A stretch of DNA of 58,711 nt, filler included, from Sphacelaria rigidula (GCA_964200075.2; 7 parts of 7 records of this genome joined end to end with filler, not necessarily neighbours in it); one strand, 5' to 3'. Counted from the first letter of the whole stretch, positions 1 through 38,253 are shown. Translations and numbers: made by a program. Notes: a model not told the origin generated them from the sequence alone.

Positions 1-3000
1 CGATACGCTCACGTCGCCTCCTTCATCTGCCACACCGGCCCCAGCCGCTATGCTCACAGCCCCACCCACCGTCGCTCCCAGTCCCGAAGTCACCGTCACC
101 GACCCGCCGGAGGCCGACGTGCCCTCGCCGGCCACCACTTCCAACGTCCCGCCCGTCGACCCGACGCCCGCCGCCATCGCCACCTCGCCGCCTGTGCCCG
201 TGCTTCCCGTCCCGGCCGCTAGTGATACGCCGCCTCCCGTCACGCCTGTCCCGCCCGTCAACGTCAACGCGCCGCCCGTCGCCAGGTCGCCGGTGCCCAC
301 CGTCAAGCTCACGTCGCCGCCCGACCCGGACGTGGCCGCACCGCTGCCGATCTGGACTGTGCCGGTGTTGCCGGAGCTGCTGGTGCCCGAGTTGAACACC
401 AGCACGCCGCTCACGCCGTCAGTGCCGGCGTTCGGCGAGCGGATCGTCACGGACCCGCTGGTGGTCTCTGTTCCCTCGCCGCTGAGAATGGTCACCGAGC
501 CTCCCGTACCGGCTGTGGCCGCAGTGGATGCTCCGGCCGTCAGCTGGACAAGACCGCCCTGGCCGGTGTCGCCGGCGCCAACCGTCAAGCTGAGCATTCC
601 GCCGGAGCCACCCAGGGCGGCCCCGCTTCCGATCATGATGTCTCCGCTGTCCCCTATGGTGGTTGATCCGGAGCTGAAGGTCATGATGCCGCTGTTTCCG
701 GAGGTACCGGCTGGAAGTGACATAACGTTGACGGTCCCGCTGTTCCCGCTTGTCACGGCGCCACTCGAAATCACCACGAGACCTCCACCTGTCTCACCAC
801 TGCCAGCGGCCATTGATACGTCGCCGCCAGCTGACGCTCCGGATCCAGCCGTCACGGTCACAGACCCGCCGGACGCTGTCGTGCCCTCACCAGCCATCAC
901 ATCAATCGCGCCGCCCGTGGACCCAACGCCCGCCACCATAGCCACCCCGCCACCTGTACCCGTGCTTCCCGTCCCGGCCGCTAGCGATATGGCGCCCCCC
1001 GTCACGCCTGTCCCGCCCGTCAACGTTAACGTGCCACCTGTCGCCAGGTCGCCCGTGCCCACCGTCAAGCTCACGTCGCCGCCCGACCCGGACGTGGCCG
1101 CCCCGCTGCCGATCTCAATCGTACCGGTGTTGCCGGAGCTGCTGGTGCCCGAGCTGAACACCAGCACGCCGCTCACGCCATCCGTCCCGGCGTCCGGCGA
1201 GCGAATCGTCACGGATCCGCTGGTGGTCTCGGTGCCCTCGCCGCTGAGGATCGTCACCGACCCGCCCGTACCGGCCGTGGCCGCGGTGGACGCTCCGGCC
1301 GTCACATGCACCGCACCGCCCTGGCCGGTGTCGCCGGCGCCGACCGTCAAGCTCAGTAGACCTCCGGAACCACCAAGGGCCGACCCGCTTCCGATCATGA
1401 CGTCTCCGCTGTCTCCGATGGTAGTAGAGCCAGAGCTGAAGGTCATGATGCCGCTGTTTCCGGCGGTACCGGCGGCGGGGGACGTGATGGTGACGGTCCC
1501 GCTGTTGCCGCTCGTCACAGCTCCACTCGCTACCGATATGGCACCGCCCCCTGTGCTGCCGCTGCCGGCCACCATCGTCAAGTCGCCGCCGGTGACCGCC
1601 GAGCTTACCCCGGCCGACACGCTCACGTCGCCTCCTTCCCCAGCCACACCGGCCCCAGCCGCTATGCTCACGGCCCCACCCACCGTCGCTCCCAGTCCCG
1701 CCGTCATCGTCACCGACCCGCCCGAGGCCGTCGTGCCCTCGCCGGCCACCACGTCGAACGCACCGCCCGTCGACCCGACACCCGCAGCCATCGCCACCTC
1801 CCCGCCGGTGCCCGTGCTTCCCGTCCCGGCCGCCAGCGACACGCCGCCTCCCGTCACGCCTGTCCCGCCCGTCAACGTCAAGGCGCCGCCCGTCGCCAGG
1901 TCGCCCGTGCCCACCGTCAAGCTCACGTCGCCGCCCGACCCGGACGTGGCCGCCCCGCTGCCAATCTGGACCATGCCGGTGTTGCCGGAGCTGCTGGTGC
2001 CCGAGCTGAACACCAGCACGCCGCTCACGCCGTCAGTACCGGCGTTCGGCGAGCGGATCGTCACGGACCCGCTGGTGGTCTCTGTCCCCTCGCCGCTGAG
2101 GATAGTCACCGACCCGCCTGTGCCGACTGTAGATGCGGTGGACGCTCCGGCCGTCAGCTGTACTAGACCGCCCTGGCCGGTGTCGCCGGTGCCGACCGTC
2201 AAGCTCAGTAGACCTCCGGAGCCACCAAGGGCCGACCCGCTTCCGATCATGATGTCTCCGCTGTCTCCTACGGTGGTGGAGCCAGAGCTGAAGGTCATGG
2301 CGCCGCTGTTTCCGGCCGTACCGGCTGGGGGCGACGTGATGGTGACGGTCCCGCTGTCTCCGCTTGTTACGGCTCCGCTGGTGACAGAGACGGCACCACC
2401 ACCTGTGCTGCCGCTGCCGGCCACCATCGTCAAGTCGCCGCCGGTGACAGCCGAGCTCACTCCAGCCGACACGCTTACGTCGCCTCCTTCATCTGCCACA
2501 CCAGATCCAGCCGCTATGCTCACGGCCCCACCCACCGTCGCTCCCAGTCCCGCCGTCACCGTCACCGACCCGCCGGACGCCGATGTGCCCTCGCCGGCCA
2601 CCACGTCGAACGCCCCGCCCGTCGACCCGACGCCCGCAGCCATCGCCACCTCGCCCCCAGTGCCAGTGCTTCCCGTCCCGGCCGCCAACGACACGCCGCC
2701 TCCCGTCACGCCCGTGCCGCCCGTCAACGTCAACGCGCCGCCCGTCGCCAGATCGCCCGTGCCCACCGTCAAGCTCACGTCGCCGCCCGATCCGGACGTG
2801 GCCGCGCCGCTGCCGATCTGGACCATGCCAGTGTTGCCGGAGCTGCTGGTGCCCGAGCTGAACACCAGCACGCCACTCACGCCGTCCGTCCCGGCGTTCG
2901 GCGAGCGGATCGTCACGGACCCGCTGGTGGTCCCGGTGCCCTCGCCGCTCAGGATTGTCATCGACCCTCCGGTGCCGGTCGTGGCCGCGGTGGACGCTCC

Positions 3001-6000
3001 GGCCTTCATGCGCACGAGACCGCCCTGGCCCGTGTCGCCGGCGCCGACCGTCAGGCTCAATAGACCTCCAGAGCCGCCGAGGGCGTCTCCGCTTCCGACC
3101 ATGATGTCTCCGCTATCTCCGACGGTGGTGGATCCGGAGCTGAAGGTCATGGCGCCGCTGTTACCGGCGGTACCAGCTGGGGGCGAGATGATGGTGACGG
3201 TGCCGCTGTTGCCGCTCGTCACGGCGCCACTCGATATCGCCACATAGCCCCCACTTGTCCCACCGCTTCCCGCAGCTATCGATGAATCACCGCCAGCAGT
3301 TGATCCAAGTCCAGCTGAAATCGTCACTGACCCGCCCGAGGCCGTCGTGCCCTCGCCGGCCAACACGTCGAATGCACCGCCCATCGACCCCACGCCCGCA
3401 GCCATCGCCACCTCGCCGCCAGTGCCCGTGCTTCCCGTCCCGGCCGCCAGCGATACGGCGCCTCCCGTCACGCCCGTGCCGCCCGTCAACGTCAACGCGC
3501 CGCCCGTCGCTAGGTCGCCGGTGCCCACCATCAAGCTCACGTCGCCGCCCGATCCGGACGTGGCCGCCCCGCTACCGATCTGGACCATGCCGGTGTTGCC
3601 GGAGCTGCTGGTGCCCGAGCTGAACACCAGCACGCCGCTCACGCCGTCCGTGCCGGCGTTCGGCGAGCGGATCGTCACGGACCCGCTGGTGGTCTCGGTG
3701 CCCTCGCCGCTCAGGATCGTCACCGAGCCTCCCGTGCCGGCCGTGGCCGCGGTGGATGCTCCGGCGGTGATTTGGACAAGACCGCCCTGGCCCGTATCAC
3801 CGGCGCCGACTGTGAAGCTTAGCAGGCCTCCGGAGCCGCCCAGAGCATCTCCGCTTCCGATCATGATGTCTCCGCTGTCTCCGATCGTTGTAGAGCCAGA
3901 ACTAAAGGTCATGACGCCGCTCTTTCCGGCTGTACCTGCTGGAGGGGACATGATTGTAATGATCCCGCTGTTCCCGCTCGTCACCGCTCCGCTGGTAATC
4001 GCCACGCCGCCGCCACCCGTGCTTCCGCTGCCGGCCACCATCGTCAAGTCGCCGCCCGTGACGGACGAACTCACTCCAGCCGACACGCTCACGTCGCCTC
4101 CCTCATCCGCCGCACCGGCCCCGGCCGCTATGCTCACGGCCCCACCCACCGTCGCTCCCACTCCAGCCGTCACCGTCACCGAACCGCCGGACGCCGATGT
4201 GCCCTCGCCGGCCACCACGTCGAACGCCCCACCTGTCGATCCGACGCCCGCGACCATCGCCACCTCGCCGCCAGTGCCCGTGCTTCCCGTCCCGGCCGCC
4301 AACGACACACCGCCTCCCGTCACGCCCGTGCCGCCCGTCAACGTCAACGCACCACCTGTCGCCAGATCGCCAGTGCCCACCGTCAAGCTCACGTCGCCGC
4401 CCGATCCGGACGTGGCCGCACCGCTGCCGATCTGGACCATGCCGGTGTTGCCGGAGCTGCTGGTGCCCGAGCTGAACACCAGCACGCCACTCACACCGTC
4501 AGTACCGGCGTTCGGTGATCGGATCGTCACGGACCCGCTGGTGGTCTCGGTGCCCTCGCCGCTCAGGATCGTCACCGACCCGCCGGTGCCGGCTGTGGCC
4601 GCGGTGGACGCTCCGGCCGTCACCTGCACCAGACCGCCCTGGCCCGTGTCGGCCGCGCCGACCGTCAAGCTGAGCAGGCCTCCGGAGCCGCCCAGAGCAG
4701 CCCCGCTTCCGATCATAATGTCTCCGCTGTCTCCTACAGTGGTGGAGCCGGAGCTGAAGGTCACGGTGCCGCTGTTTCCGGCCGTACCGGCGGCGGGGGA
4801 CGTGATGGTGACGGTTCCACTATTCCCGCTTGTTACCGCACCGCTTGTCACCCACACGGCACCACCCCCCGTGCTACCGCTACCAGCCATCATCGTCAAG
4901 TCGCCACCAGTGACAGCCGAGCTCACTCCAGCCGATACACTTACATCGCCTCCTTCATCCGCCACACCGTCACCCGCCGCTATGCTCACGGCCCCACCAA
5001 CGGTCGCACCAAGTCCGGCCGTCACTGACACCGACCCGCCCGAGGCCGCCGTGCCCTCGCCGGCCCCCACGTCCAACGCACCGCCCGTAGACCCGACACC
5101 CGCAGCCATCGCCACCCCGCCCCCAGTGCCCGTGCTTCCCGTTCCGGCCGCCAACGACACGCCGCCTCCCGTCACGCCCGTCCCGCCCGTCAACGTCAAC
5201 GCGCCGCCCGTCGCCAGGTCGCCCGTGCCCACCGTCACGCTCACATCACCGCCCGATCCGGATGTGGCTGCGCCGCTGCCGATCGCAATCGTACCGGTGT
5301 TGCCGGAGCTGCTGGTGCCCGAGCTGAACACCAGCACGCCGCTCACTCCGTCAGTACCGGCGTTCGGCGAGCGGATCGTCACGGACCCGCTGGTGGTCTC
5401 TGTGCCCTCGCCGCTCAGGATGGTGATCGATCCTCCCGTGCCGGCCGTGACAGCGGTGGACGCCCCGGCGGTGATTTGGACAAGGCCGCCCTCGCCGGTA
5501 TCGCCGGCGCCGACCGTCAGGCTCAGCAGACCGCCCGAACCGCCGAGGGCGTCTCCGCTTCCGATCATGATGTCTCCGCTGTCTCCGATGGTGGTGGAGC
5601 CGGAGCTGAAGGTCATGGTTCCGCTGTTTCCGATCGTACCGGCGGCGGGGGACGTGATGGTGACGGTTCCGCTGTTGCCGCTCGTAACAGCACCACTGGA
5701 CACTTCAACAGCACCGCCCCCCATTCCTCCGTAACCAGCTTCGATGAAGATTCCGCCCCCGGCCGTCGCTCCCACTCCAGCCGTCACCGTCACCGAACCA
5801 CCGGAGGCCGTCGTGCCCTCGCCGGCCACCACGTCGAATGCACCGCCCGTCGACCCCACACCTGCAGCCATCGCCACCTCGCCCCCAGTACCCGTGCTTC
5901 CCGTCCCGGCTGCCAGCGACACGCCGCCTCCCGTCACGCCCGTACCGCCCGTCAACGTCAACGCGCCGCCCATCGCCAGGTCGCCCGTGCCCACCGTCAA

Positions 6001-8302
6001 GCTCACGTCGCCGCCCGATCCGGACGTGGCCGCCCCGCTGCCGATCTGGACAATGCCGGTGTTGCCGGAGCTGCTGGTGCCCGAGCTGAACACCAGCACG
6101 CCACTCACGCCGTCAGTACCGGCGTTCGGCGAGCGGATCGTCACGGACCCGCTGGTGGTCTCGGTGCCCTCGCCGCTCAGGATCGTCACCGACCCGCCTG
6201 TGCCGGCTGTGGCCGCGGTGGACGCTCCGGCCGTCAGCTGCACCAGACCGCCCTGGCCCGTGTCGCCGGTGCCGACCGTCAAGCTCAGTAGGCCTCCGGA
6301 GCCACCAAGGGCGTCTCCGCTTCCGATCATGATGTCTCCGCTGTCTCCTACGGTGGTGGAGCCGGAGCTGAAGGTCACGGTGCCGCTGTTTCCGGCGGTA
6401 CCAGCTGGGGGAGACGTGATGGTGACGGTTCCGCTGTTGCCGCTCGTCACGGCTCCGCTGGTGACAGAGACGGCACCACCACCTGTGCTGCCGCTGCCGG
6501 CCACCATCGTCAAGTCGCCGCCGGTGACCGCCGAACTCACACCGGCCGACACGCTCACGTCGCCTCCCTCATCCGCCACACCGATCCCGGCCGCTATGCT
6601 CACGGCCCCACCCACCGTCGCTCCCAGTCCCGAAGTCACCGTCACCGACCCGCCCGAGGCCGTCGTACCCTCGCCGGCCACCACATCAAAAACACCACCG
6701 GTCGACCCGACGCCCGCAGCCATCGCCACCACGCCACCGGTGCCCGTGCTTCCCGTCCCGGCCGCCAGCGATACGGCGCCTCCCGTCACGCCCGTGCCGC
6801 CCGTCAACGTCAACGCGCCGCCCGTCGCCAGGTCACCTGTGCCCACCGTCAAGCTCACGTCGCCGCCCGATCCGGACGTGGCCGCCCCGCTGCCGATCTG
6901 GACCATGCCGGTGTTGCCGGAGCTGCTGGTGCCCGAGCTGAACACCAGCACGCCACTCACGCCGTCCGTCCCGGCGTTCCGCGAGCGGATCGTCACGGAC
7001 CCGCTGGTGGTCTCGGTGCCCTCGCCGCTGAGGATCGTCACCGAACCGCCAGTGCCTGACGTGGCCGCAGTGGATGCTCCGGCCGTCAGCTGGACAAGAC
7101 CTCCTTGGCCCGTGTCGCCGGCGCCGACGGTCAAGCTCAGTAGACCTCCGGAGCCACCCAGGGCGGCTCCGCTTCCGATCATGATGTCTCCGCTGTCTCC
7201 GATGGTGGTGGGGCCGGAGCTGAAGGTCATGATGCCGCTATTTCCGGCCGTACCGGCTGAGGGCGAAGTGATGGTGACGGTCCCGCTATTTCCGCTGGTC
7301 ACGGCTCCGCTTGTCAGAGACACGGCTCCGCCGCCCGCGCTGCCGCTGCCCGCCACTATCGTCAAGTCGCCACCTGTAAGGGTCGAGCTCATACCAGCCG
7401 ATACGCTCATATCGCCCCCTGCTCCGGTGCCTCCACTACCGGCTGCGATACTCACGCTGCCTCCAGTTTCAGCACCGGAACCAGCTTCCATACTGAGTGA
7501 TCCCCCGCTGTTCGCTGCTCCTGCCCCCGCTGCGATGCTCAACGCCCCGCCCGACGTAGACCCTACTCCCGCCTGCAGCGTAACAGCCCCACCAGTGCCA
7601 GATGTACCATCCCCAGCAGCAATACTCACTGGACCACCTGTTGCTGCGTCCCCAGCTATCACAGTGACTTCTCCACCGGTGCCCGCTACGCCTGTACCCG
7701 CAGCAATGTTTACAGGACCACCCGTGACCCCAGTGCCTGAGAACAAATGAAGTGTTCCGCCCGTCGCCAGGTCGCCCGTACCCACCGTCAAGCTCACGTC
7801 GCCGCCCGACCCGGACGTGGCCGCCCCGCTGCCAATTTTCACCGTACCGGTGTTGCCAGAGCTGCTGGTGCCCGAGCTGAACACCAGCACGCCGCTCACG
7901 CCGTCCGTGCCGGCGTCCGGCGAGCGAATCGTCACGGACCCGCTGGTGGTCTCGGTGCCCTCGCCGCTGAGGATAGTCACCGATCCGCCGGTGCCGGCCG
8001 TGGCCGCGGTGGACGCTCCGGCCATCACCTGCACTGCACCGCCCTGGCTCGTGTCACCGGCGCCCACCGTCAGGCTTAGCAGCCCGCCCGAGCCGCCGAG
8101 GGCGGCCCCGCTTCCAATCATGATGTCTCCGCTGTCTCCGATGGTGGTGGAGCCGGAGCTGAATGCCATGGTTCCGCTGTTTCCGGCTGTTCCTGCTGAA
8201 GGTGACGTGATGGTGACGGTTCCGCTGTTCCCGCTCGTCACCGCTCCACTGGCGACCACAACAGCGCCGCCGCCTGCGCTGCCGCTGCCGGCAACCATCG
8301 TC
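1..8302 (-). CDS. Partial giant Gly/Ser/Thr/Ala/Val-rich tandem-repeat protein (predicted beta-solenoid/beta-roll), open at both contig ends, >=2767 aa
   Basis: Reverse-complementing plus triplets starting at positions 1 mod 3 gives e.g. LTVGTGDLATGGALTLTGGTGVTGGGVSLAAGTGSTGTGGEVAMAAGVGSTGGAFDVVAGEGTTASGGSVTMTAGLGATVGGAVSIAAGAG. I found no stops in the stretches translated, including around 3245 and 7748 where the plus-strand Pro-rich ORFs stop. All repeat periods are multiples of 3, and differences between copies fall mostly at wobble positions of this frame. The ORF track omits it, consistent with no in-frame stop before the window edge. Confidence 0.9.
1..8302. repeat. Coding tandem array with 762/852/939-bp units and a 2466-bp higher-order repeat
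   Basis: Anchor CGTCAAGCTCAC (or a one-base variant) recurs at 301, 1063, 1915, 2767, 3529, 4381, 5233, 5995, 6847 and 7786. Spacings are 762, 852, 852, 762, 852, 852, 762, 852, 939. Confidence 0.95.
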
Positions 8303-8402
8303 NNNNNNNNNNNNNNNNNNNNNNNNNNNNNNNNNNNNNNNNNNNNTTAATTAATTAANNNNNNNNNNNNNNNNNNNNNNNNNNNNNNNNNNNNNNNNNN
8401 NN
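8303..8402. other. Artificial 100-nt contig spacer (also at 16705-16804, 25107-25206, 33509-33608, 41910-42009, 50311-50410)
   Basis: N runs with a central TTAATTAATTAA (stops in all six frames). The flanking contigs are all 8301-8302 bp. Confidence 0.98.
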
Positions 8403-8776
8403 CCGCCCCCCGCCCAGTTGTCCGTTCGTGAATAGGCATATGTACCCCCCCCCATATACACGAAAGCTGAAGTAGGAACCCCCCCCCCCCCCCGTCCCAC
8501 TAGTGCTCCATACGCCCATTTACTAACTTAGCGCCCATTCGTCTGTGTCGTAGTGGGGAACAACAGTGCAAAGAAAAAACAAATCGTCGCCCGTCGTCTT
8601 TGCAACAACGCAAAGAGAAATATATTCGCCTTTCCTCGCATTGATGTGAGGGTACTGCCCCCTCCACGCGCGCGCAACAATGGACGACGCGGTCAAGTCA
8701 ATTCCGATTGAAGTGTAACCGTTTTGTACCACCGGTTAGTGGGACACGACGGTAGATATCGACCTTGTTCAGGCCT

Positions 8777-11700
8777 CTAGACGGTCCTTCCATAGCTGGT
8801 ATCTTCAATGTCCTCTACGTATATCGTGTTCACTCTAACTTCCTTCCCATCTGAATGGCGCCTACACTTAATTCCTAGCTCTGATCCACCAAATGAGAAT
8901 CGCATCGATACATCGCGGCGAGTGAAAGAAGCGGTCATGTCCATTGGTACATCAACCGTGACTAGATTGTTCAACATCCTGTTGACGCCCCTGTCTTTCA
9001 CGTATTGGACATCTGCAGCGCACTGCTTTGTAACCAGAACCTCAAACCTCATGCTCTGTTGGCCTTCAGTCACGGGCGAAAATGTGTGTTCTTTTTCAGT
9101 TCCTACTGGAAGGTCTTGGCCCCTCTCGACGTATTTGTAGAACTTGTCGAGGTAAATTTTACCCTCGTAGGATTTTGTCTGACTCTCGCGTTTACTGTGC
9201 TCCGGATCGGCCGCATTGTACCTCGATACACCAGCGGTTCCGTATGTCAGGCGCGCTTTGCGAGAAATGATGGATCCTTTGTTCGCTCCAAACAGTGCTG
9301 CTCCAAGTACCTGACGTGTGTGTTTCGAGCGGGGGGTCTGAGGATCAGAGGGTAAATTACCCTTTAGATTGGGATGCGCGATAGTGCAGATCGAAGATAG
9401 CCACTGGTCATCGACTGCTCACCCGGTTCGTCGCCCCTATTTCGCTGAACACCACTTGAGAGCAAAGTGAAACGTTGTACGGAGGTAGACATTTCTTACT
9501 ACTCACATACCGACACACTACCTAACGACGTACGATTTCGTATCGGACCCTAGTGCCCTTCTCTCCTCTCGCAAACTACCTCAAATATTGTACTTACAAT
9601 CGCCAGACCAGGTCTGCGTGGAGCGATCACCCTCACAGCGCCATGGCCGTTCTTTAGCCCTCTGGTGACCGCCTTTTGCAGAAGGGGGCTTGAAGAAAAC
9701 CCCCCGACCAGGTATACCATGGATATCCCCGGATTCTTGTCCAGTACTTCCCGACTTACGCGTACGATTTCGTTAAAAACGTCATCAAAGAAGCTCGACA
9801 TCAATGCAGGCTCAATCTTCAGCGTGCGTCCGGTCGCCTTGACTCCGGTCTGTCAGGGATAATAGGAAATGTTCAAGAGATGCATGAAACCACTCGAGCC
9901 GAAACGGTTTTATCAAGGCCTTCTCAAACTTCACTCCTCCAGAGCGTTCATTACGTGGTTTCAACGCAAAAACAACAGTCAGCGAAGTCCAATGGTTTTA
10001 TTAAATACGTTGCGATGGGTGCAACACGAGTCTGTAGGGAACGCGATAGTGTCCGATATCCATGACATAAACGGTCAATGACGGTCACATGTTCGCGTGA
10101 TGTATATTCCACAACATGTCTCGGTTGTGGCAAAATCTAATAGCGTCCGAATACCGTCAATTGGGCTTGGAGCGGGATGTATCGGGATTTCGTTGGGTTT
10201 ACAATGCTTGTTCGATGTTGATCCACAATGAACGCGCGTTGCTCAACCGTTTCGTAGTATGTAGAAAGTCATGGGCAAGAAACAACATGCACCAGCTTCT
10301 TTTCATGTGGTCACGTCTCATACAATATATCTTGCATTACGTTGCTGAGATGAGTGACAGGACCGCATCGTAGTTCGAAGCACCTGAGGATCGACGTATT
10401 TCAAACCAAACCGGACCAAAACCTGCAGGGACCATGCCCCTTGCCCTTACTGTAGGGATATTCGAATTCCGATGCAGTCGTCTAAGCGCGCGGTCCTCTC
10501 ACGCATTACACACGCTGGGTGTGGGGCGAGTTTTCTCCGTTGGAGTGGCCCGTCGGAAACCGCCGCTTCAACGCCAGATATACTGTTACCCTCTTCAACG
10601 AAACGCGTACATGACCAAAGGCCAGGATTCATGTGGTTTACATTGCATCTCCAACCGTGCGCACAGTTGCACTTAGCGTCGACGGGAACTTCGGAGCAGT
10701 GTCGCATATGCTGCTGTCATTTACGCCTCGAACCCATGAGAACACCCACCACAGTTGAGTTGAAGTCTTCCACTGAAACCTTGAAGGTTATCACGTTCAT
10801 CTCGATCTGGTCCAGAATGTCACCGAGCTGAAGCCGAACTGATTGTCCCTCCTGGTAATCGGTCTTCTTGCTCTCCCAATCTCGCATGAGTGACAACATC
10901 TGTGCCGACCCACTTAGTTTGTTCCACGCTTCTTTGCTGCATCGTAGTATGTCCTATCAGAGACACATTATACATCCAAGGAGGGCACATGAAGGACCAC
11001 GTGAGGGGACGATGGCAGCAGTCATCGGGCATAGGTATTTGTCAGCAATATCCTCGGTGGTCGAGTACATCATTCGAGACTCTGGTATAGCCGCTGTTCT
11101 TGGTCGATGAAGCCACTCCAACAGTGTTCTTCGTACGAAGCATACCAAACGTCAACCACTGAAACACCAAATAAATGGTGCGAGATATCTAAATCTCGGC
11201 AAAACTGAGGGCTGGTGTGCACATCTCACCTTCAAGAATGCTTTGAACTTGGAATCCACCACAGTCGATCCCCACGGCCCGCCGGTCGGCTCTTCAACCT
11301 CCTTTAGCTCTAACGGCGAAGCACCAATGACTTCGTGAGTAGTGACATCGATGGTCCCCCCTCCGCAGTCCAAGATCATCACTTGAGTACCTTGCTCCCA
11401 GGGGTGGGCGTTGTCTTGTTCCACGGAGAGACAGGCAGCTTCTGGCTCCAGACAGAGAGCCAGATTCTATAAGCAAAGTTCGGGAATGCATGGGGTTTGG
11501 CCTTTGGACGGTCAGGACGCGGATGAAGGCACAATACATTGTTAGCCACGACACGAGTCAACACAAGGCTCTTAGGTGTGTGCTGCGACGTGTCGTGTTG
11601 GTCCGACACGGCATATTCGTAGTGGCCTCGTAAAGTGTCGCTGAAACTTCCTATCCAAGCGGATTGCACCTACCAGCCTCGCTGATAGAACATATTATAT

Positions 11701-12616
11701 ACCTCCTTGCACGTACCAGCCTCACTGGTAAAACATATACCTCACTACAGTTATCCCCTCTTCCCAGCTGTAAGCAGAGACGAGCTTCAGTATTGGTTTG
11801 CCCTTGACAGTCTCTACGATAGTCCCCTGCCGGTAGCAGCCCAACAGTGTCACGAAACAATAGTCATAAAGCGCTTGATGTTTGGGTTCAGGCTGCATGA
11901 AGCGCCTCACATAGGCGACATTGGCGAGAACGAACCCAAGCGTGGGAATTCCCAGCTATTCGTTGTGCTCGACTTTCTCCGTTTCGATGTATGTGAAGAT
12001 GTTGCCTTGCCAAGAAACCACGCACTTTTGAGGGGGAGCTATCGTAGAAAATGTCTCTTCTAGTTTCTCAAGCTCCCGATTGGCCGCTTCTACCCTGGGC
12101 CGGGAAGAGGTCCCAATCTCACCTCTTGGTCATGTTCGGAGTCGATTAGACCGCCCCTGAATGCCGCTGTACGCATGAAGATCTTGCCAAACTCGCTCCA
12201 GATGGCAGGGATAGTCAGCACGAAGCGGATATCCGACGAGCGTAAGGTGCCTTGATCGGAGCTGTTCAGGCGATCTATGATTTGCGCCTTGATGTGTTTG
12301 AGCGCCAGTGAAACGACGTATACCAGGGGGAGAGTAACTCTATTATCCGCCGCGATGCCCATAACATCGTCCACCTTCCTACCTCCTTTTCCCTCCCTGC
12401 CGCCCCGGAACAGCTCCATCTTGAAATATTTGAATAAGGCAAGGTCTTCGCCACCGTCGCCATCCGTCTTGGCGCAGATATACTCCCCTTCGGCACTATC
12501 TCCGAAAGTCTGCAGCCGCCACCCGCCTTCGTCTTTGTCGGACCTTTTCAGCAGGACCGTAGTTGCCGTCTTTCGTTCCACAGACATGGTGGTATCGCCG
12601 TGCCGGTCAGGTATAC
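8777..12616 (-). CDS. HSPA12: HSPA12-like atypical Hsp70, spliced, 5'-partial; exons 12616-12123, 11466-11230, 10953-10750, 9849-9598, 9310-8777
   Basis: Motifs KTATTVLL, FGDSAEGEY, FKYFKMEL, RFVLTIPAIWSEFGKIFMRTAA, LCLEPEAACL, ILDCGGGTIDV, GGPWGSTVVDSKF, YLVGGFSSSPLLQ, PGLAIVLGAALFG, SRKARLTYG and FSFGGSEL match the HSPA12 subfamily. The GT..AG boundaries join in frame (four phase-0 introns), with TAG at 8777-8779. The donor at 10749 is the least certain. The N-terminal IDFGT exon was not found. Confidence 0.88.
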
Positions 12617-12791
12617 CTTAAATATCGGGTGTAGCACAATTACGTATCAACAGCACTATACTTGAGCCCTTTGGAATGCTTGGATGCAAACGAAATTACC
12701 ACTACGATCACTATCGCCCTGAAACGTTGAATTTCTGATTCCAATTTCGTGACGATGGCGGTTTCGGTGAGCGAACTTCAGGGGGAGGTCG

Positions 12792-12996
12792 TGTAATGCG
12801 TGAGGGGACGGCGTGCTTAGGGGACCACTGCGTAGTCCAAAACACCCCAGGATCGACATCTTTTTACACCAATTGGGCCAGTCCCTGCAGGTACCACGCC
12901 CCTGACCCTAACCTCAACACAAACCCTCACCCCAACCATACGGATATTCAAATTCAGATGCGGTCCTCTAAGCACGCGGTCCTCTCAGGCATTACA
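12792..12996 (+). mobile_element. MITE with ~37-bp TIRs (TGTAATGCGTGAGAGGACCGCGTGCTTAGAGGACCGC), telomere-like CCCTAA core and 5-bp TSD
   Basis: Ends TGTAATGCGTGAG...CTCAGGCATTACA. Internal cctgaccctaacctcaacacaaaccctcaccccaacc. Flanks GGTCG/GGTAG. Degenerate or partial copies at ~10346-10510 and ~13044-13075. Confidence 0.85.
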
Positions 12997-14978
12997 GGTA
13001 GTTTCCGGAGTGTTTTCTGACGTGTTCCAGCCACGTTAGTTGTGTGATGCGTGAGGGGACCGCGTGCTTAGGGGTAGACCCCAGTGGAAGTCCTAAAATA
13101 ACGGGTGGTTTCCTTGGAAAGCAGTAGTTCATTGTAACGGGTATAAAGCGTTCAAGCAAGGAAATTTCGATCTTGAACAGGGAAAGATATACTACGATAT
13201 CCCTGAATACTATTCTGCATGTTTCATTCCGAGCAATATTCCCCAAATACCCCCACAGTTGTCACAAATCCTATCTGAGGGGGAGGGTGCCAGCGCTTTC
13301 CGCCCCTGGATCAGACCCCGGTTGGGACCGTCAGGAGGGATATTCAAACTACAGCTGATGCGGGTTCTAAATGAAGATAAACGGCTCAGATTTTGCAAGC
13401 GCGTTGCACAACAGTATGGTACTGTTCGACAGCCTCACCGCGGAACCGGTTCTCAACACAGCCACGGCGGTGGTGACCATACAAGGCGCGATAGCTGGTA
13501 TAGAATGGATGAAGCGCCTCGCATGGGCACTACTGGCGAAACAACCCCAACCGTGGGACTAACCCTTACCCCCGTTGTGCGTCTCTACAGCTTTATTGTG
13601 GGGCACCATTTTATCCAACTGACGACTGTACTGTAGTGATGCTGTACTCTGGTGGTGGTATATCTCGGCAGACTGCTGAATGATGCTACGTTTCAAAGAT
13701 CGCTGGTGTCTGTTCCCGGATTGGATCGTTCCGCTGACGGCGGTCGTCACCGGCGCAACAGTGTGAAGTCTCTCTCAGATACTCAACAAGAGGCGCTCGA
13801 CAACCCGATGACTAGTCCAAAGAAGTATGTTTTCAGCATTCTTTGTTACGTGCTCCTTAGCGCTTAGACGCAGATCCCGCTAAACAAATGCAGGACAAGG
13901 AATGACGGCGGTTTTTCTGTTTGACTGATTATCATCATGCTTGCGCTGCCGTGCAGAGACTTCTGGGTTTGGCTTACATGGTCGAAACCGGTTGCGAATC
14001 TCGAGCCTTTTGGACGAAGGAAGTGAAATTTCAATGGTCCGTTGAATCTCGCCCAAATGTTGAACCTCAAAATCAACTCCAGGCTGTCATAGGTAGCTAG
14101 CCTGTGACCACGGAAGGCGTCCGCATCAGATGCCCAGTACGAATTTACCGCTCACACATCGGAGCGGCTTTTAATGTGAAGACAACAACAACCTCAACTG
14201 AAGCCGGGTACAACGGCAAATTATCGTAGTGGAACGGAGCAGATTAGAATACACTGAAACCGAGCAGTGTTCACCACCACACTAGAAGACAAGCACATTC
14301 TGACCACAACACTGAAATGGTGTATATTTGGAACCACATGGCATCCACGTCATTTGACCTCACACTGAGCTGCAGTGATACAACATAAATAGTTGAGCAA
14401 TGATGAATAAAATCATGAGCCCAGAGGTGATCGTCGAAAGTTCGACCTTGAACGGGTGTTCCGTCCATCCCGTGCCCCTCCTCAACACGGACAATACCAA
14501 AGGGATCATCCTGCGGGAGAGGGGGGGTGTACTCATCATCATGCATGTCATTGTCGTTGCGGAGGGGGGGGCATTCCTTTATGAAAGCAGCAACGGTTCT
14601 TCGAACGCGCTCGTCGCCGATGAGTAACACCCAGCCATGTTGCTTCACACTGCTTCACCCAAATGCAAGCGCACCGTGTGTTGGGTCGTCTGACCCAAGC
14701 TCATCTGCTGGGCGCAACATACTTGAAGCGCCAACGATCACCACCCGCTGCGTAGCGGGCACCGCGAACAACGGTGCGTGCGGGTGAGTAAGCGGCAGTT
14801 GCTCGTGTCACATTGATCGACGAGCAACGCTATGGCCGTGATCGCAACGTAGATGTGTGCAGAGCGGACGACCATAACTTCACGCTACGCAAAATTTAGG
14901 AAGTCAACCAACGGTAATCAAGTGTACGACTGTAGTAGTGAGTTATTGAATATTGCGTAGAAGTCGGTGGGAGCAATG

Positions 14979-15220
14979 CTACGGTAGAAGTGCACTTTTT
15001 TCGCGAGAGTTTGTCTGGTTCAGGGGCTCCTAACGATTCCAGACGCACAAGATTATAGGTCAGGGCATCCCCGTTTGCAGATTCATTCGGGATATCCCCG
15101 GCACATTGGAATAGTAATCCTGGCGTACTCTCGCATATTTTCACCAGGAGTGGTTTGGATGACATAAAGGGCTCCTGACATTTTGACCTCAGAAATTATT
15201 TGTGTACCCCTATACCGTAG
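14979..15220. mobile_element. TIR MITE family (CTACGGTAG...CTACCGTAG); relatives at ~29295-29571 and ~29697-29824
   Basis: Inverted termini, plus internal sequence (ttcaggggctcctaa, attcattcgggatatccc..gcacattggaat) shared with 29335-29571. Confidence 0.65.
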
Positions 15221-15331
15221 CATCACTCGTGGACAGTGAGTGTGTGCCAAATTGACGGCAATCATACAGTGACTGGAGACCGTATTGATAGGAGTGAGGG
15301 GGGGGCGTGCTGTTTCGATCACGACGAGGCT

Positions 15332-15542
15332 TGTAGTGCGTGGGAGGACCGCGTGCTTAAAGGACCGCATCGGAATTTGAACACCCCTATGGGTAGGGTT
15401 AGGGTTAGGGTTGGGGTTGGGGTTCGGATCAGGGGCGTGGTACCTCCAAGGGCTGACCCGATTGGTTTTGAAAAGCGTTGATCCTGAGGTGTTTTGACCG
15501 ATGGCGCGGTCCTCTAAGCACGCGGCCCTCTCACGCAATACA
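15332..15542 (-). mobile_element. Telomere-core MITE, reverse orientation
   Basis: TGTAGTGCGTGGGAGGACCGCG...CTCACGCAATACA. Core gggtagggttagggttagggttggggttgggg. Perfect 5-bp TSD AGGCT/AGGCT. Confidence 0.9.
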
Positions 15543-15767
15543 AGGCTGATGCTCCCAAGCTACACTGCGGCGGGGTAATCGTGCAGGGACATCGCGTAGC
15601 TGCTATCGTGTGCATTGTGTTGCAAAACCCTTTTGAGAACGAAATGCTGTTCCCGGGGGACAGCGCCATATCCGCATAGAAGGCAAACAAATTCAGAATA
15701 ACAGCGCTTGCAACAAATGCAGAAGCAAAAAAATGATGGCGATAGTCAATGCGCACCGCACAGGATC

Positions 15768-16704
15768 TGTAATGCGTGAGAGAGCGCGTGCTCAGGGAAC
15801 CGCACCGGAGTTCGGAACACTTCAGGATCGACGTTTTCCAAAACCAATCGGGCCAGTCCCTGCAGGACCACACCCCTGACCGCAACCAAAACACCAACAC
15901 CAACACTATCCTGAACAACAGGGATGTTCAAACTCCGATGCGGTACTCTAGGCACGCGGTCCTCTCACGTGCGAATGGCCACTGGGGTACCTGCCACCTC
16001 AAATAATTTGGACGTTACGGACTTTGCACAACGTCTGTGACGTCCAAATTTGAGGTTGCAGGCACCTCAGTGGCCACCCGTTTACATTGCAGTATCGTCA
16101 GTACAAAAACAAAGTGGCAGAAAAAAAATGGTGTGTGCTTGTGCGATCCTAAGATGGGGGGGGGGGTCGCACGAACAAATAAATGATGTCATGTCTGAGT
16201 TGCACTCTAATAATACGTGAGAGAGCCGCGTGATGAGGGGACCACATCATAGTTCGACACACCTCAGGATCGAAGTTTTCCGAACCCAATCGGGTCAGTC
16301 CCTGCAGGACTACACCCCTGACCGTAACCCCAACACAATGGGGATGTTCGAACTCCGATGCGGTACTCTAGGCACGCGGTCCTCTCACGCACGGGTGGTC
16401 ACTGGGGTGCCTGCCACCTCAAATTTGGACGTTACAGACGTTGCACAAGGTCTGTGACGTCCAAATTTGAGGTGGCAGGCACCTCAGTGGCCACCCGTTT
16501 GCATTACAGTATCGTCAGGACAAAAACAAAGCGGCAGAAAAAAATGGTGAGTGCATGTGTGATCCTAAGATGGGGGGGGGTGTACTCATGATCATGGGGG
16601 GGGGGGGGGGGGTCGTCGCACGAACAAATGAATGTTTTCATGTCTGAGGTGCCCCGTATTACGTGGGATAGCCGCGGGGTGGGGGGGCCCCCTCATAGTT
16701 TGAC
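15768..16704. repeat. Tandem ~440-bp units, each a telomere-core MITE derivative + ~108-bp hairpin + G-rich tail
   Basis: Units start at ~15768, ~16208 and ~16655, the third running into the gap. Hairpins at 15971-16081 and 16391-16498. Confidence 0.85.
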
Positions 16705-16865
16705 NNNNNNNNNNNNNNNNNNNNNNNNNNNNNNNNNNNNNNNNNNNNTTAATTAATTAANNNNNNNNNNNNNNNNNNNNNNNNNNNNNNNNNNNNNNNN
16801 NNNNACATTGTTTACTCACGTTCTCACGCTTTCCACCGTGGAAATCATATATTACGAAGAAAAAA

Positions 16866-25030: not shown

Positions 25031-25349
25031 CTCTGGTGGTGACGCACCCATGAGGCAATGTAATAGCCGTGGCTGTCTCTGGAAGTGGCGATACCAGACA
25101 ATAAAGNNNNNNNNNNNNNNNNNNNNNNNNNNNNNNNNNNNNNNNNNNNNTTAATTAATTAANNNNNNNNNNNNNNNNNNNNNNNNNNNNNNNNNNNNNN
25201 NNNNNNGGCGGTGACACCAAAGTGCCGCCGAGCCCCTTTGCTACATCTCCGATTCTTCCGTGGTTGAGTCGGACGAGACTCGTGCAGGTGGCGGCTAGGT
25301 CTGTGATGATGCGTTTCATTTCTGTTAGGTCTATGTGTGTGTTTGAGAG

Positions 25350-28300
25350 TTATTGCTGTTGCTGTTTCCATCGGGTATTGACGTTTTTGCTTGGGTGGTC
25401 TGTGTGTCCGGTTGGGCTTCGGTGGCGTGTGGTCCCAACTGGAGGTGAAGTTTTCACCGACCCGAAATTTCGCCTACCGATGATCTCCTTACTATAGGTG
25501 TTGTTCTTTTTCTCTGCGGGCTTCTCACTCGTCAACGCGTGCGAGCCGTTGTCTGGGGCTACCTGTGTGTAACTATTGGTCAATGATTTTGCGTTAGTGC
25601 ACCGGGTGCTGTTTTGAACTCGTGCACGCTTTCCGCTCGTCAACATGGACGTGCCGTTGTCCAGGGTTCCCTCGGAACTGCCAGACAACGGGTCTTCTTC
25701 TGCACCTCTATGGTCGTTTGCTCCCCTTAAGTAACTGGTTATCGAGTTTGCAAGCTTTGCGCTCGTCAACATGGACGTGACGTTGTTCAGGGTTCTCTCG
25801 GAACTGCCGAACGCCGGGTCTTCTGCACTGGGTGTGATTCGAATTTCACGGGGAGCATGAGTTCTGTTATTGTCTGATCCACCGACGTTCACGATTACCT
25901 GTGCGTAACTGCCGACCGCCGGATCTTCATCTGAACGATGATGGTTGGTTCGAACTCTTGCATACTTTGTGCTCGTCAACATGGACGTGCCGTTGTCCAG
26001 GGTTCCCTCGGAACTGCCAGACAACGGGTCTTCTTCTGCACCTCTATGTTCGTTTGCTCCCCTCAAGTCACTGGTTATCGAGTTTGCAAGCTTTCCGCTC
26101 GTCAACATGGACGTGACGTTGTTCAGGGTTCCCTCGGAACTGCCGAACGCCGGGTCTTGATCTGCACTGGGTATGATTCGAATTTCACGGGGAGCATGAG
26201 TTCTGTTATTGTCTGATCCACCGACGTTCAGGGATACCTGTGCGTAACTGCCGACCGCCGGATCTGCTTCTACACGTCTCCTGTCTGTGGGAATGTGCGA
26301 AGTGGTGTTGGCGTGGTGTCTGCGTGTACTGTTGTTTTCGTTAGTCATGGACGGATAGACTACCTGATCTTGTTGCTGACTTACCTGTGCGCGTTCCTGC
26401 TTTCCGTTGTACCTCAATGTCGACCGGTTACAGTGATCGTGCGGACCGTTGATCGCGTAATTATTGTTTTTCGTGTCATTGCGCGGGACGGTGTTCTCAT
26501 CGAGTATTTCATGCGTGTGAGCTCTGCCGTCCAATCTAGTGTACCCTGCCGGCCTTTGCTTGTTACAGTACGTCTTGGTGGAGTTGGTCATGGAAGTTGT
26601 TTTCGGTTGTGGGAAATGCGGAATGGAACTACGTGGTCTACCGCTGTGACGTGCATGTGGGTTGTTACGTGCGTTGGTACTTCTGCTCTCACCGTGAAAG
26701 AAGCTTGGCGCCACCGACCCCGGTTGGGGGGCCTGGGCGATACCCACCCACCTCGCTGAGTCCGTGACCGGTGCTCCTCCTCCCCCCAGACTGGTAGGCC
26801 CCGCCGACTGGCGGAGCCCGCACCCTCAGGTGCCCCGCCCAGCTCCGCCATTTCCGCCGAAGCTGTGGGAAAAACGCGCCACTGTACTCGCTGCGGTCGC
26901 CGGTGCTGCTGGCGTTAGCGGTTATGTCGTCGCCGCCGGCGGGGCTGTTGGAGCTGTCTGGAACGCCGCTGGCGGCTGGAGGGGAGGGCCTCCGCCGGCT
27001 TCATGCTTGCTTGTGTGCTACGGGAGGCGGCAGCCGCGCCCCCGTGGGCATGTGGGGCCCTGCCAAGCTCGTAAGCAGACGCCCGCCGGCGGGGCCCATG
27101 ACTACAGTTCAGTGTTGAAATCGGTGTTCGGTGGCGTGAGGTGTTGCCACTGGGGCGGGTACGGCGGGGGTCGGGGAGCGACGCGTTTGACCGCGTTGCT
27201 CGTGCCCCCGTCGGGGAATGCCTTTCGCTTGACGGCTGTCTTGGGGGCGGGCTGCGCGAGTGAGCCTGCTACCGCGAGCCCGGAGTTTTGGCGACCGATG
27301 AGGCTGCTGGGGTGGCCGTCGGCGGTTAGCGTTTTCACACGGGTTAACGATGGCACCGGCACCGCGGGGCCCTGCTTGTTGGCGGGTGGGGCGGCGGGAG
27401 ACTCCATGCGTAGGTTCAATCCCGCGTCCCTGCATTCTGTGAGCCATCCGTTGATGTCGTGGTTAAAGTCAGAAATGTTGCGGGTTTTGACGGCCGCGTC
27501 GTCTCTGTGTAGAGCGGCGTAATGTTTCCCCGTATACGCGTCCAGCGCCGACGCCATCCTCGTCAGCTCTCCTGTGATGAAGGCTCGCCTATCCCGCCCG
27601 CCGTCGTTGTCGGTGGTGCCGAAGTTGATGATGATGGTCAGCGCCTTGGTGAATGTTGTGACATGGACCTCAGCGCGAAAGTAGTTATTCTTTATGCCAG
27701 GCGGCACCGGGGACTGGAAGTTGGTGACGTCTACGTCGGTCAACGTCTGGAGATTGCTCAGCATGCCCCGGTTGGTGTCGGCCACGTCGCGGAGTTTTAG
27801 TTTCAAGTTTGCGTCAGACATGGGAATGGAAATGGAGACCCCGCCCCTGAGGATGTGGAAGAGTGCCTTGTTTTCGTTCGAGAGCCAGCTGTTAATCTCC
27901 CGCTTCTCCTGCATTTCTTCGACCTTCTTCGTACTGGCGGGGGCGGCGTTGGCAGCTCTCATTGCATGCATGAGTTGTTGGATCTGACCCCCTCCTCCGC
28001 CACTGAAAAGTTGAAGGAGTTGGTGGACCGGGGATTGCGGCTGTGCTTGGTGGTATTGCTGTGGTTGCTGTTGATGGAGTTGTTGTACGTGGTGCTGGTC
28101 AGGCTGCGATTGCTGTTGTTGCTTCGGCGGCTGAGGCTGTTGGTGTTGGTGCTGCGGTTGTTGGTGCTGCTCGTGCTGCTGAGGTTGATACTGCTGCTGC
28201 TGCTGTTGCGGTTGATGATGGTGATGTGGCTGCGACTGCTGGAGTTGGTGATGCGGTAGTGGCTCTCCGATGGGTGGCGGCAGTGGGACGCTGGGTGCAA

Positions 28301-28854
28301 GCAGGGAGGCCCCGTTTACTCTTCCTCCCGCCATGTGCTGTTGCTGCGCGGCGCTCGCCGGCTGTTGGTCGACCCCGCCTTGGACGGCCCCGCCTTGCTG
28401 TTGTGGTTGTTCGTACTGGAGAAGATGTACCTGCTGTTGAAGGTTCAAGATTGCCTGGCTCTGTTGCTGCTGTCGGTGAAGGTTTTGCTGGTGTTGCTGT
28501 TCCATGTTGATGTTCGTTTTCGCCTGTGCATGCAGGGTTTCACCTAGAATGTCTGATGGCTCACTTGGGCCAGGTGGGGGTCCGAGAGGCGGTGGGGGGG
28601 GGTGCAGGTGCGTTACTATTCACCTGGCCTGCACTACCTTGCGGGCGGGCATGCTGGTTGACGGAGATCGGGTTGCTGTGCAGGCCTCCGGCTTGTGGTG
28701 CCGAAGCTCGGCGTGGTTCCCGTCCTGCGGCCCTTCCCTCTTTTGCTCCTGCCGTTGCTCGAGCTCCTGATGTGCTGTGGGGGTGTTGGTCTTGGCTTTG
28801 CGAAGCTGCTCTTCCCGCTGCTACTGCTGCTCCCGATGTTGATGTTTTGTCCAT
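25350..28854 (-). pseudogene. Decayed intronless ORF cluster (Gln-rich ORF, degenerate CCCH-like finger, repeat-containing ORF), probably the gag-like 5' part of a retroelement (DIRS/Ngaro-like?)
   Basis: ORF 28854-28561 frameshifts at a C-run into the 467-aa polyQ ORF (28505-27102). Reading through its TAG gives CLRAWQGPTCPRGRGCRLP*H. A 465-aa ORF (26747-25350) with internal repeats follows. No RT or tyrosine recombinase motif is seen before the contig end, so the class is inferred. Confidence 0.45.
25635..26265. repeat. Two ~292-bp direct repeats (period 336), each with a 126-bp internal sub-repeat
   Basis: GCTCGTCAACATGGACGTG at 25635, 25761, 25971 and 26097. All spacings are multiples of 3. 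Confidence 0.9.
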
Positions 28855-33508: not shown

Positions 33509-34020
33509 NNNNNNNNNNNNNNNNNNNNNNNNNNNNNNNNNNNNNNNNNNNNTTAATTAATTAANNNNNNNNNNNNNNNNNNNNNNNNNNNNNNNNNNNN
33601 NNNNNNNNCCAGAGTTGCTTAACCCTTGGACCGCGGTGCCCGTATTCCATCTGGACCACGCGGGTACTTTTTCCAAGTGAATATTGATGCCGATTCAGCA
33701 GGTGACCCACTCTCGCACTCAACGGGTAACTCCTGCTGCGGAGTTTGGGGGGGGAAGATACTTTCGCTCTGTGTTACTCTTTCGTATCTTCCCTGCAATA
33801 GAGAAATGGGACTTCAACCTCATTTTTTGTTTCAACCCCAAAAATTAGGACCGGCTGTTAAGTTCACACCCGTCTCTGACCAACTCTAAACAGACGTGCA
33901 GTCTTAAAAGAGCCTGGGATGAGATATAAAGCCGGACTGATCGACCCTCTGAGGTAGAACAACAACAGGCTAATATGCTTCTCATGATACTGACCCACCC
34001 AGACGAACCTGTAATACAGC

Positions 34021-38222: not shown

Positions 38223-38253
<31 letters not shown>

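Follow-up and report, generated by a model that had tools for sequence, protein, structure and literature searches.

The closest described systems to the protein considered here are the phage tail fibres and tailspikes, which carry a C-terminal Peptidase_S74 domain (S74, PF13884) and are represented by the families phrog_1980, phrog_6921 and phrog_5481. The protein itself is predicted from a glycine-rich reading frame on the minus strand of positions 1-8301 of a stretch of 58,711 bases from the alga Sphacelaria rigidula (GCA_964200075.2), called the window in the following. On balance, we favour the view that this frame represents an internal part of an extracellular fibre that is secreted, resembles a tail fibre and is probably trimeric. 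Its relatives pair the same Gly-rich shaft with S74, phrog_1980 spans both parts in one of them (P0010), and Caudovirales proteins in BFVD, a collection of predicted viral structures, resemble the model of the window protein. In contrast to the phage fibres, the family is eukaryotic, with heads of the EGF, PSI or Kringle type; its proteins can be thousands of residues long, made up of tandem units of 254-313 residues, and some members have several internal S74 domains in a polyprotein-like layout. The window fragment shows neither S74 nor a match to a PHROG family.

The HylP hyaluronidase tail fibres (2c3f, 6wv2, 2yvv, 6x3m) are the main PDB chains that resemble the fold model of one repeat unit, in two independent searches. 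The likeness is weak, with Z 3.9, a root-mean-square deviation (rmsd) of 4.9-5.0 Å over 183-189 residues, 14-15% identity and Foldseek E values of 3.3-9.1. The unit has no sequence match to any PDB chain, and the resemblance concerns the fold model, not lyase activity. The same phage domain, also termed ICA, is employed by eukaryotes in MYRF and MrfA, membrane transcription factors in which it trimerises and cleaves itself, according to the accessible parts of two sources (PMC8326128, PMC3742443). The S74 domain of P0010 matches the MYRF ICA domain 7dc3 (E 4e-7), but MYRF combines a DNA-binding domain with a short stalk, lacks an array of Gly-rich repeats and is not a secreted protein.

Protist polinton-like viruses possess modular repeat fibres of up to 3.9k amino acids that end in S74, ochrophytes being excepted, as far as the accessible part of the source tells (PMC12220804). 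Likewise, a 1529-residue S74 protein of Heterosigma akashiwo virus is described in the available text of a preprint (bioRxiv 10.64898/2026.02.06.704369). Within these partial sources, the fibres of polinton-like and algal giant viruses are large and modular, with repeats and a terminal S74, as in the S74-bearing relatives. They make use, however, of laminin-G, collagen, adenovirus-fibre or FhaB-like modules; the same text portions make no mention of the signature seen in the repeat of the window protein, and no relative was found on a viral contig.

Ice-nucleation and antifreeze beta-solenoids and RTX beta-rolls are extracellular proteins with Gly/Ser/Thr-rich rungs of approximately 15-16 residues in long tandem arrays. 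The window protein has no sequence or Pfam match to them, and AlphaFold2 did not produce a monomeric solenoid. The Lpv genes of Phytophthora are intron-free tandem-repeat genes. Their products are stramenopile glycoproteins of more than 400 kDa, the sequence features of which are not given in the accessible text (PMC3869178), and the possible likeness lies in very large proteins of stramenopiles. Mastigoneme proteins are described only as EGF-like domain proteins in the available part of the source (bioRxiv 10.64898/2026.09.11.750887). No sequence or domain link to the present family was found in these portions of the mastigoneme and Lpv literature.

The glycine-rich frame and its repeat units

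Full translation of the minus frame gave 0 stops in 2767 codons, in agreement with the original prediction of a stop-free frame of at least 2767 residues; the remaining two minus frames of 1-8302 contain 33 and 205 stops. The frame leaves the contig inside the repeat at each end, with the N-terminus as well as the C-terminus outside the fragment, as had also been stated. A listing of open reading frames (ORFs) extends it to 8346 only by running into the Ns of an artificial joint. Ten tandem units could be delimited, starting at residues 17, 330, 614, 868, 1152, 1436, 1690, 1974, 2258 and 2512, with lengths of 313, 284, 254, 284, 284, 254, 284, 284, 254 and 255 residues, the last cut by the contig end. 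The frame (from the absence of stops and from homology), the units (from the unit layout) and an example of the family signature (from alignment A3) are placed as follows.

1-8301, minus strand: ORF fragment of 2767 codons, without start and without stop
8251-8301, minus strand: last 17 residues of the preceding unit, cut by the contig end
7312-8250, minus strand: unit 1, 313 residues, the most divergent copy
6460-7311, minus strand: unit 2, 284 residues
5698-6459, minus strand: unit 3, 254 residues, short-tail type
4846-5697, minus strand: unit 4, 284 residues
3994-4845, minus strand: unit 5, 284 residues
4348-4590, minus strand: example of the family signature of about 70 residues, in unit 5
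3232-3993, minus strand: unit 6, 254 residues
2380-3231, minus strand: unit 7, 284 residues
1528-2379, minus strand: unit 8, 284 residues
766-1527, minus strand: unit 9, 254 residues
1-765, minus strand: unit 10, 255 residues present, cut by the contig end

The array has a super-period of 2466 nucleotides and was overlooked by Tandem Repeats Finder because the longest period of that program is 500. Units of 254 residues lack two 15-residue rungs of the tail. Unit 1, which is 77-80% identical to the other units at the DNA level, has a tail with two extra rungs of this size. Unit 5 served as the query for fold prediction, searches and read mapping. A strict rung pattern matches 161 times in the 2767 residues, corresponding to approximately 180 rungs, close to the roughly 190 originally estimated. 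The spacing between matches is mostly 15 residues (n=70), followed by 13 (21), 30 (20; one rung missed), 16 (19), 14 (17) and 18 (10).

The translation consists of 27.4% G, 15.0% S, 14.9% T, 11.8% A and 10.0% V. With 147 D+E against 15 K+R, no Cys and F/W/Y counts of 29/1/2, it has the acidity and the near-absence of Lys, Cys and aromatics that had been described from the stretches translated earlier. As a separate observation, not a single N-x-S/T sequon occurs in the 2767 residues, even though Ser and Thr make up 30% and there are about 39 Asn; the second position after every Asn is occupied by Gly or another residue that is not Ser or Thr. As the units are copies, the number of independent Asn sites is small.

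Substitutions were counted in 45 unit pairs, using the first 225 codons of each of the 10 units. Synonymous differences between units number 2870, against 1253 that are non-synonymous; the proportions of synonymous (pS) and non-synonymous (pN) change are 0.33 and 0.058, with a pN/pS of 0.175. Codon positions 1, 2 and 3 have 53, 35 and 166 variable columns out of 225, and the median identity between units is 91% for the protein and 88% for the DNA, the latter figure without unit 1. Purifying selection acts on every unit, and the array is not a young satellite. The statement that the copies differ mostly by synonymous changes is thus borne out, with a ratio far from 1.

On the plus strand, the Pro-rich frame that shares its wobble position with the Gly-rich frame has a pN/pS of 0.223, compared to 2.2-3.6 in the four other frames. 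It also appears selected because the wobble position is common to both. The original prediction had looked to such ratios in both frames: constraint on the Gly-rich frame stands, but a clear separation from the plus frame does not. The plus-strand layout is the following.

2-8302, plus strand: Pro-rich shadow frame with ORFs 2-3247, 3248-5734, 5735-7750 and 7751 onwards, sharing the wobble position; judged non-coding

These ORFs encode 1081, 828, 671 and 199 residues. The frame has 3 stops, against 3.9 +/- 1.7 expected when the codons of the minus frame are shuffled, and its openness therefore fits a by-product of the minus codon composition. Frame openness does not settle the choice of strand; homology settles it in favour of the minus Gly-rich frame. 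The plus-strand translation has no Pfam match and matches 0 of 156 family proteins at E<=1e-3. The Pro-rich ORFs are accordingly judged to be non-coding shadows, as had been supposed, and 1-8301 on the minus strand reads as a real, selected coding frame.

Relatives and their domain plans

When the Gly-rich frame was compared to 1.84 billion protein representatives, 672 matched at E<=1e-3, 125 at <=1e-10 and 4 at <=1e-30. A word-indexed protein search with the same frame gave 3 matches among 3038 scored candidates; further searches of this type gave 5 matches each, without an additional named relative. In a control for composition, the real unit matched 152 of the 156 fetched proteins, while the reversed unit and three shuffles matched none. 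Judged from the sequences, the homology is not compositional.

Names were looked up by cluster for 30 matches, together with one match from the word search, and six carry an organism name. An unnamed product of Ectocarpus sp. CCAP 1310/34 (CAB1099194.1, 1158 residues), which sits on a 268-kb contig, shows 46% identity (E 3e-104), and a protein from the transcriptome of Nephroselmis pyriformis (CAMPEP_0182854040, 3798 residues) shows 32% (E 3e-101). Oomycete relatives occur in Lagenidium giganteum, Aphanomyces euteiches and Aphanomyces astaci; in the Lagenidium gene model the repeat is joined to importin-like repeats, which is probably a gene-model error. One relative lies in a Methanosarcinales metagenome bin and is named tail fiber domain-containing protein. 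Two stem from a marine metatranscriptome catalogue, and all others are proteins without a name from metagenomes or run assemblies. The top clusters in the ESM Atlas (score 0.98) are unnamed and mostly from Oomycota; recognition is low (1029), and they serve as a lead only.

The family is characterized by a signature of approximately 70 residues with invariant N-A-G and G-V-S-G cores, nine columns being invariant over the 16 sequences of alignment A3. A copy recurs in every unit of the window. The first half of each unit (residues 1-70) resembles, by eye and unaligned, a second and looser copy. The repeat is not covered by Pfam. A single Pfam line, for GAF_3 (E 1.4e-12, 0 passing stretches), was rejected as the summed noise of the repeat. 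NCBIfam contains 0 families matching the window super-unit and 0 matching P0010, and a PDB sequence search with the family profile gave 0 matches at E<=1. With a single unit as query, 597 pattern matches in metagenome contigs and 69 in a viral contig collection yielded 0 confirmed relatives in either case. No account of this eukaryotic repeat family was found in the literature, although supplementary proteome tables might list members. Taken together, the sequences indicate an uncharacterised eukaryotic family that comprises brown algae, oomycetes, a green alga and many uncultured protists.

Fuller relatives give an impression of the missing ends. In a set of 32 long relatives, to which P0010 does not belong, a Pfam scan detected Peptidase_S74 in 6, EGF_2 in 3, PSI in 2 and Kringle in 1. 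Hydrophobic N-termini resembling signal peptides were recognized by eye in P0002, P0009, P0054, P0070 and P0111. The most complete plan is that of P0054 (2250 residues), with a hydrophobic N-terminus, an EGF region at 29-187, family repeats, Peptidase_S74 at 2065-2139 and a short tail. These hydrophobic N-termini and the EGF, PSI and Kringle domains make an extracellular location plausible.

Counted over all relatives, Peptidase_S74 was found in 8. The S74 domain of P0010, aligned to 7dc3, shows a Ser followed by a Lys five residues on, which we take to be the site of the catalytic dyad. The tail-fibre profile phrog_1980 aligns to residues 55-450 of the same protein, thus covering Gly-rich shaft and S74 (E 2e-40). 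Tail-fibre PHROGs match 4, 3 and 3 of the 32 long relatives, and four PHROG families each match 1 of the 52 sequences of alignment A2.

P0010 contains three Peptidase_S74 domains that alternate with Gly-rich arrays, P0105 contains two, and P0113 has a single, partial one. The internal position of these domains between Gly-rich shafts makes P0010 and P0105 polyprotein-like. If each S74 cleaves, one precursor of this type would give several fibre segments. No description of such a layout with multiple S74 domains was found in the accessible portions of the literature.

Fold models, contig setting and abundance

A first AlphaFold2 run, on one 284-residue unit with a 52-row alignment, gave a mean predicted local distance difference test (pLDDT) of 73.3 and a predicted template modelling score (pTM) of 0.56, with 188 of the 284 residues at pLDDT 70-90. 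The model is an extended chain in which DSSP recognizes essentially no secondary structure. Neither this run nor a second one on a rung-only sequence produced a stacked-strand monomeric solenoid, so that the beta-solenoid originally expected for the unit failed to appear. The phage hyaluronidases are trimers with a triple-stranded beta-helix. A lone chain of such a helix has no strand partners, which would explain a fairly confident model without secondary structure. A three-chain prediction of the 284-residue unit, made without the family alignment, scored 0.02 against a mark of 0.32 and provides no evidence either way.

Foldseek returned only three rows for the unit model against the PDB, all streptococcal phage hyaluronidase tail fibres. 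Structural alignment to 48,161 PDB representatives gave only four chains at Z>=2.

2c3f: streptococcal phage hyaluronidase, Z 3.9, rmsd 4.9 Å, 183 aligned
6wv2: streptococcal phage hyaluronidase, Z 3.9
4ufq: Streptomyces hyaluronidase, Z 3.5
24qj: tailspike depolymerase, Z 2.8

A Z of 3.9 is below the level that the comparison tool calls common among unmatched models. In BFVD, an uncultured Caudovirales protein ranks first (E 1.4e-5, 29% identity over 257 columns, rmsd 18 Å), with two further rows near 2e-3. The S74 domains of relatives, the PHROG match to the shaft of P0010 and these fold look-alikes together point to a phage-tail-fibre architecture.

The window is composed of seven contigs of about 8.3 kb each, sorted by size and placed end to end. 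The joints, at 8303-8402, 16705-16804, 25107-25206, 33509-33608, 41910-42009 and 50311-50410, have the form N44-TTAATTAATTAA-N44, with TTAATTAATTAA being a 12-base linker that provides stops in all frames. The one that borders the Gly-rich frame is the following.

8303-8402, no strand: artificial joint to an unrelated contig (N44, 12-base all-frame stop linker, N44)

Bounded by such a linker, 1-8302 forms a contig of its own, and the sequences next to it in the window do not represent its genomic context. Its GC content is 0.69-0.71, compared to 0.45-0.60 across the other contigs.

Approximately 40-45% of the sampled words of the contig are present in four sequencing runs from two studies; one run is labelled algae metagenome and the others share one coded organism. 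No RNA run is listed among the runs sharing contig words. Read contigs on unit 5 (3994-4845) were counted at >=85% likeness. Two DNA runs have 426 and 383 short contigs on this one unit, up to 37 at one place, and the tandem junction is present in contigs of both. Their summed depth, which is not a copy number, is 484-15,908, against 46-153 for single listed records in run X2. There is thus a hint, and for this reason only a hint, that far more unit variants exist in the genome than the ten on this contig. In addition to the usual junction, runs X1 and X2 contain variants of the unit that jump over 150-270 bases of 3994-4845; other parts of the genome probably contain units of further lengths. 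From two runs presumed to be RNA, 5 and 3 short contigs were obtained; all are less than 95% alike and of depth 2-7, and they say nothing firm on expression.

The other contigs of the window contain features of their own, and several of the small ones look like repeats. Retrotransposon ORFs lie at 38049-40338 on the minus strand, with RVT_1 (E 1e-18) and RT_RNaseH_2 in 39472-40338 and RT_RNaseH (E 1e-7) in 38049-39500, also on the minus strand. An open frame of 505 residues at 27102-28619 (minus strand) is rich in Gln, Pro and Ala (75 Q and 53 P of 506), with a third-position GC content of 0.69; it has no Pfam match, and the surrounding stretch shows an AT skew of -0.29. At 8403-8530, the end of the second contig adjoining the linker, there are long poly-G/C runs, the longest of about 14 bases, which may be an edge effect of sequencing or assembly. 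A separate gap of 10 Ns is found at 52020-52029.

The fibre reading, its rivals and what it would mean

The contig reads as an internal piece of a very large intron-free exon that encodes an acidic repeat protein rich in Gly, Ser, Thr, Ala and Val. Each unit of 254-313 residues is a string of rungs of 13-16 residues, every rung consisting of one short strand with alternating V, I, L or M and a Gly-rich turn. According to the tail-fibre-like reading, and as judged from the fuller relatives, the whole protein would be made with a signal peptide, enter the secretory pathway and form a long extracellular fibre, which may have a structural or adhesive role in the cell coat, the wall or the zoid surface. 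The shaft would most likely fold as phage tail fibres do, with three chains intertwined as in the triple-stranded beta-helix. In those relatives that keep it, the Peptidase_S74 intramolecular chaperone would assist folding and then cut itself off. Heavy O-glycosylation of the 30% Ser and Thr is likely. Of the rod originally proposed, the extracellular part is made plausible by the N-termini and the EGF, PSI and Kringle domains of relatives, while the single-chain beta-roll or beta-helix finds no backing in the two AlphaFold2 runs or in Pfam.

Such a single-chain solenoid, in which each chain stacks its own 15-residue rungs into a beta-helix or beta-roll rod, seems fairly unlikely to us. The regular 15-residue periodicity, the alternating hydrophobics and the Gly turns would suit it well, and rungs of 15-16 residues are known from insect antifreeze and ice-nucleation solenoids. 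However, these predictions show no DSSP strands at pLDDT 73.3 and a pLDDT of 45.2 in the other run, Pfam gives no solenoid, RTX or Pmp match, and no solenoid is among the four PDB chains at Z>=2. Alternatively, the repeats could lack a defined fold and belong to a mostly disordered, heavily O-glycosylated secreted protein that is mucin-like or gel-forming. A content of 30% Ser and Thr and 27% Gly with nearly no aromatics speaks for this, as do the low confidence of the rung-only model and the unit model without secondary structure. We nevertheless regard it as unlikely: a strict hydrophobic alternation and N, G and A columns that are invariant across distant taxa would be unusual for disordered mucins, each unit is under purifying selection, 188 of 284 residues are modelled at pLDDT 70-90, and the family is linked to a chaperone domain that serves the folding of fibres.

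That the look-alikes in fold and sequence are phage proteins, and that the contig with its GC of 0.70 is unlike the other window contigs, could also be accounted for by a virion fibre gene of an integrated or co-assembled algal virus, be it a giant virus, a phaeovirus-like element or a polinton-like virus. The large modular fibres with C-terminal S74 in protist polinton-like viruses (PMC12220804) and the S74 fibre protein of Heterosigma akashiwo virus (bioRxiv 10.64898/2026.02.06.704369), as presented in the accessible text, would be in line with it. Such an origin is quite improbable, since searching the viral contig collection with the unit gave no relative, the EGF, PSI and Kringle domains and the relatives known from transcriptomes suggest secretory proteins of cells, the contig that carries the Ectocarpus relative is 268 kb long, many variant copies occur in the DNA runs, and S74 genes were not found in ochrophyte polinton-like viruses, at least in the accessible part of the source (PMC12220804). 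It is very improbable that the contig is foreign to the organism or no gene at all, that is, a bacterial contaminant, a GC-rich satellite or the sequence of a plus-strand Pro-rich protein. An isolated, all-repeat contig of 70% GC could give rise to this suspicion, as could a plus frame with just 3 stops and a pN/pS of 0.22, and the minus frame is not significantly open when compared to plus-codon shuffles. Yet the closest relatives are eukaryotic and bear real domains in line with the Gly-rich frame. The plus translation matches neither Pfam nor the 156 family proteins, the openness of its frame is the expected by-product of the minus codons, and synonymous divergence with a conserved protein argues against a satellite.

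A number of observations weigh against the tail-fibre-like reading itself. The pN/pS ratio barely parts the Gly-rich frame (0.175) from the plus frame that shares its wobble position (0.223), and 25% of 200 plus-codon shuffles yield a stop-free minus frame. The second AlphaFold2 run (153 residues, rung-only, 16 rows) reached only a pLDDT of 45.2 and a pTM of 0.28, and disorder of the repeat would remain compatible with this low-confidence model. Matches in the PDB are weak (Foldseek E 3.3-9.1; Z 3.9 at an rmsd of about 5 Å), and those in BFVD have an rmsd of 16-20 Å. Peptidase_S74 is confined to 8 relatives, 26 of the 32 long ones being scanned without finding it, and the signal peptides of relatives were judged by eye only. 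No PHROG is matched at E<=0.01 by the 822-residue super-unit of the window, and tblastn aligned it to none of the phage records. Finally, the 2767-residue fragment contains no Peptidase_S74, EGF or signal peptide; this is explained by the fact that both of its termini are off the contig.

A wider proposal, which we put forward tentatively and consider possible rather than probable, is that a phage tail-fibre module, consisting of an intertwined Gly-rich shaft and a self-cleaving S74 chaperone, was taken over by brown algae, oomycetes and some green algae for giant secreted cellular fibres, and that the shaft unit was amplified here to many dozens or hundreds of selected copies. Should this takeover be real, the contig would represent a minor part of a gene that ranks among the largest for extracellular fibres in an alga. 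The fibre would then build a surface structure, for example a coat around the cell, an adhesive or an appendage of flagella or zoids.

There is a lesson for annotation as well: genes of this kind fragment assemblies into all-repeat contigs, and their long antisense Pro-rich ORFs may be mis-called as genes. If the tail-fibre-like reading is correct, a whole family of giant eukaryotic surface proteins went unnoticed, one that lacks a Pfam model and a solved structure and for which no paper was found. It would be built on the plan of phage tail fibres, some members retaining the self-cleaving trimerisation chaperone. To our knowledge, the S74 chaperone has until now been known in cellular eukaryotes mainly from MYRF. 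The family would serve as an example of how cells reuse structural modules of viruses, and it would be a concrete candidate for the fibrous material, so far unexplained, on the surface of brown algae and oomycetes.

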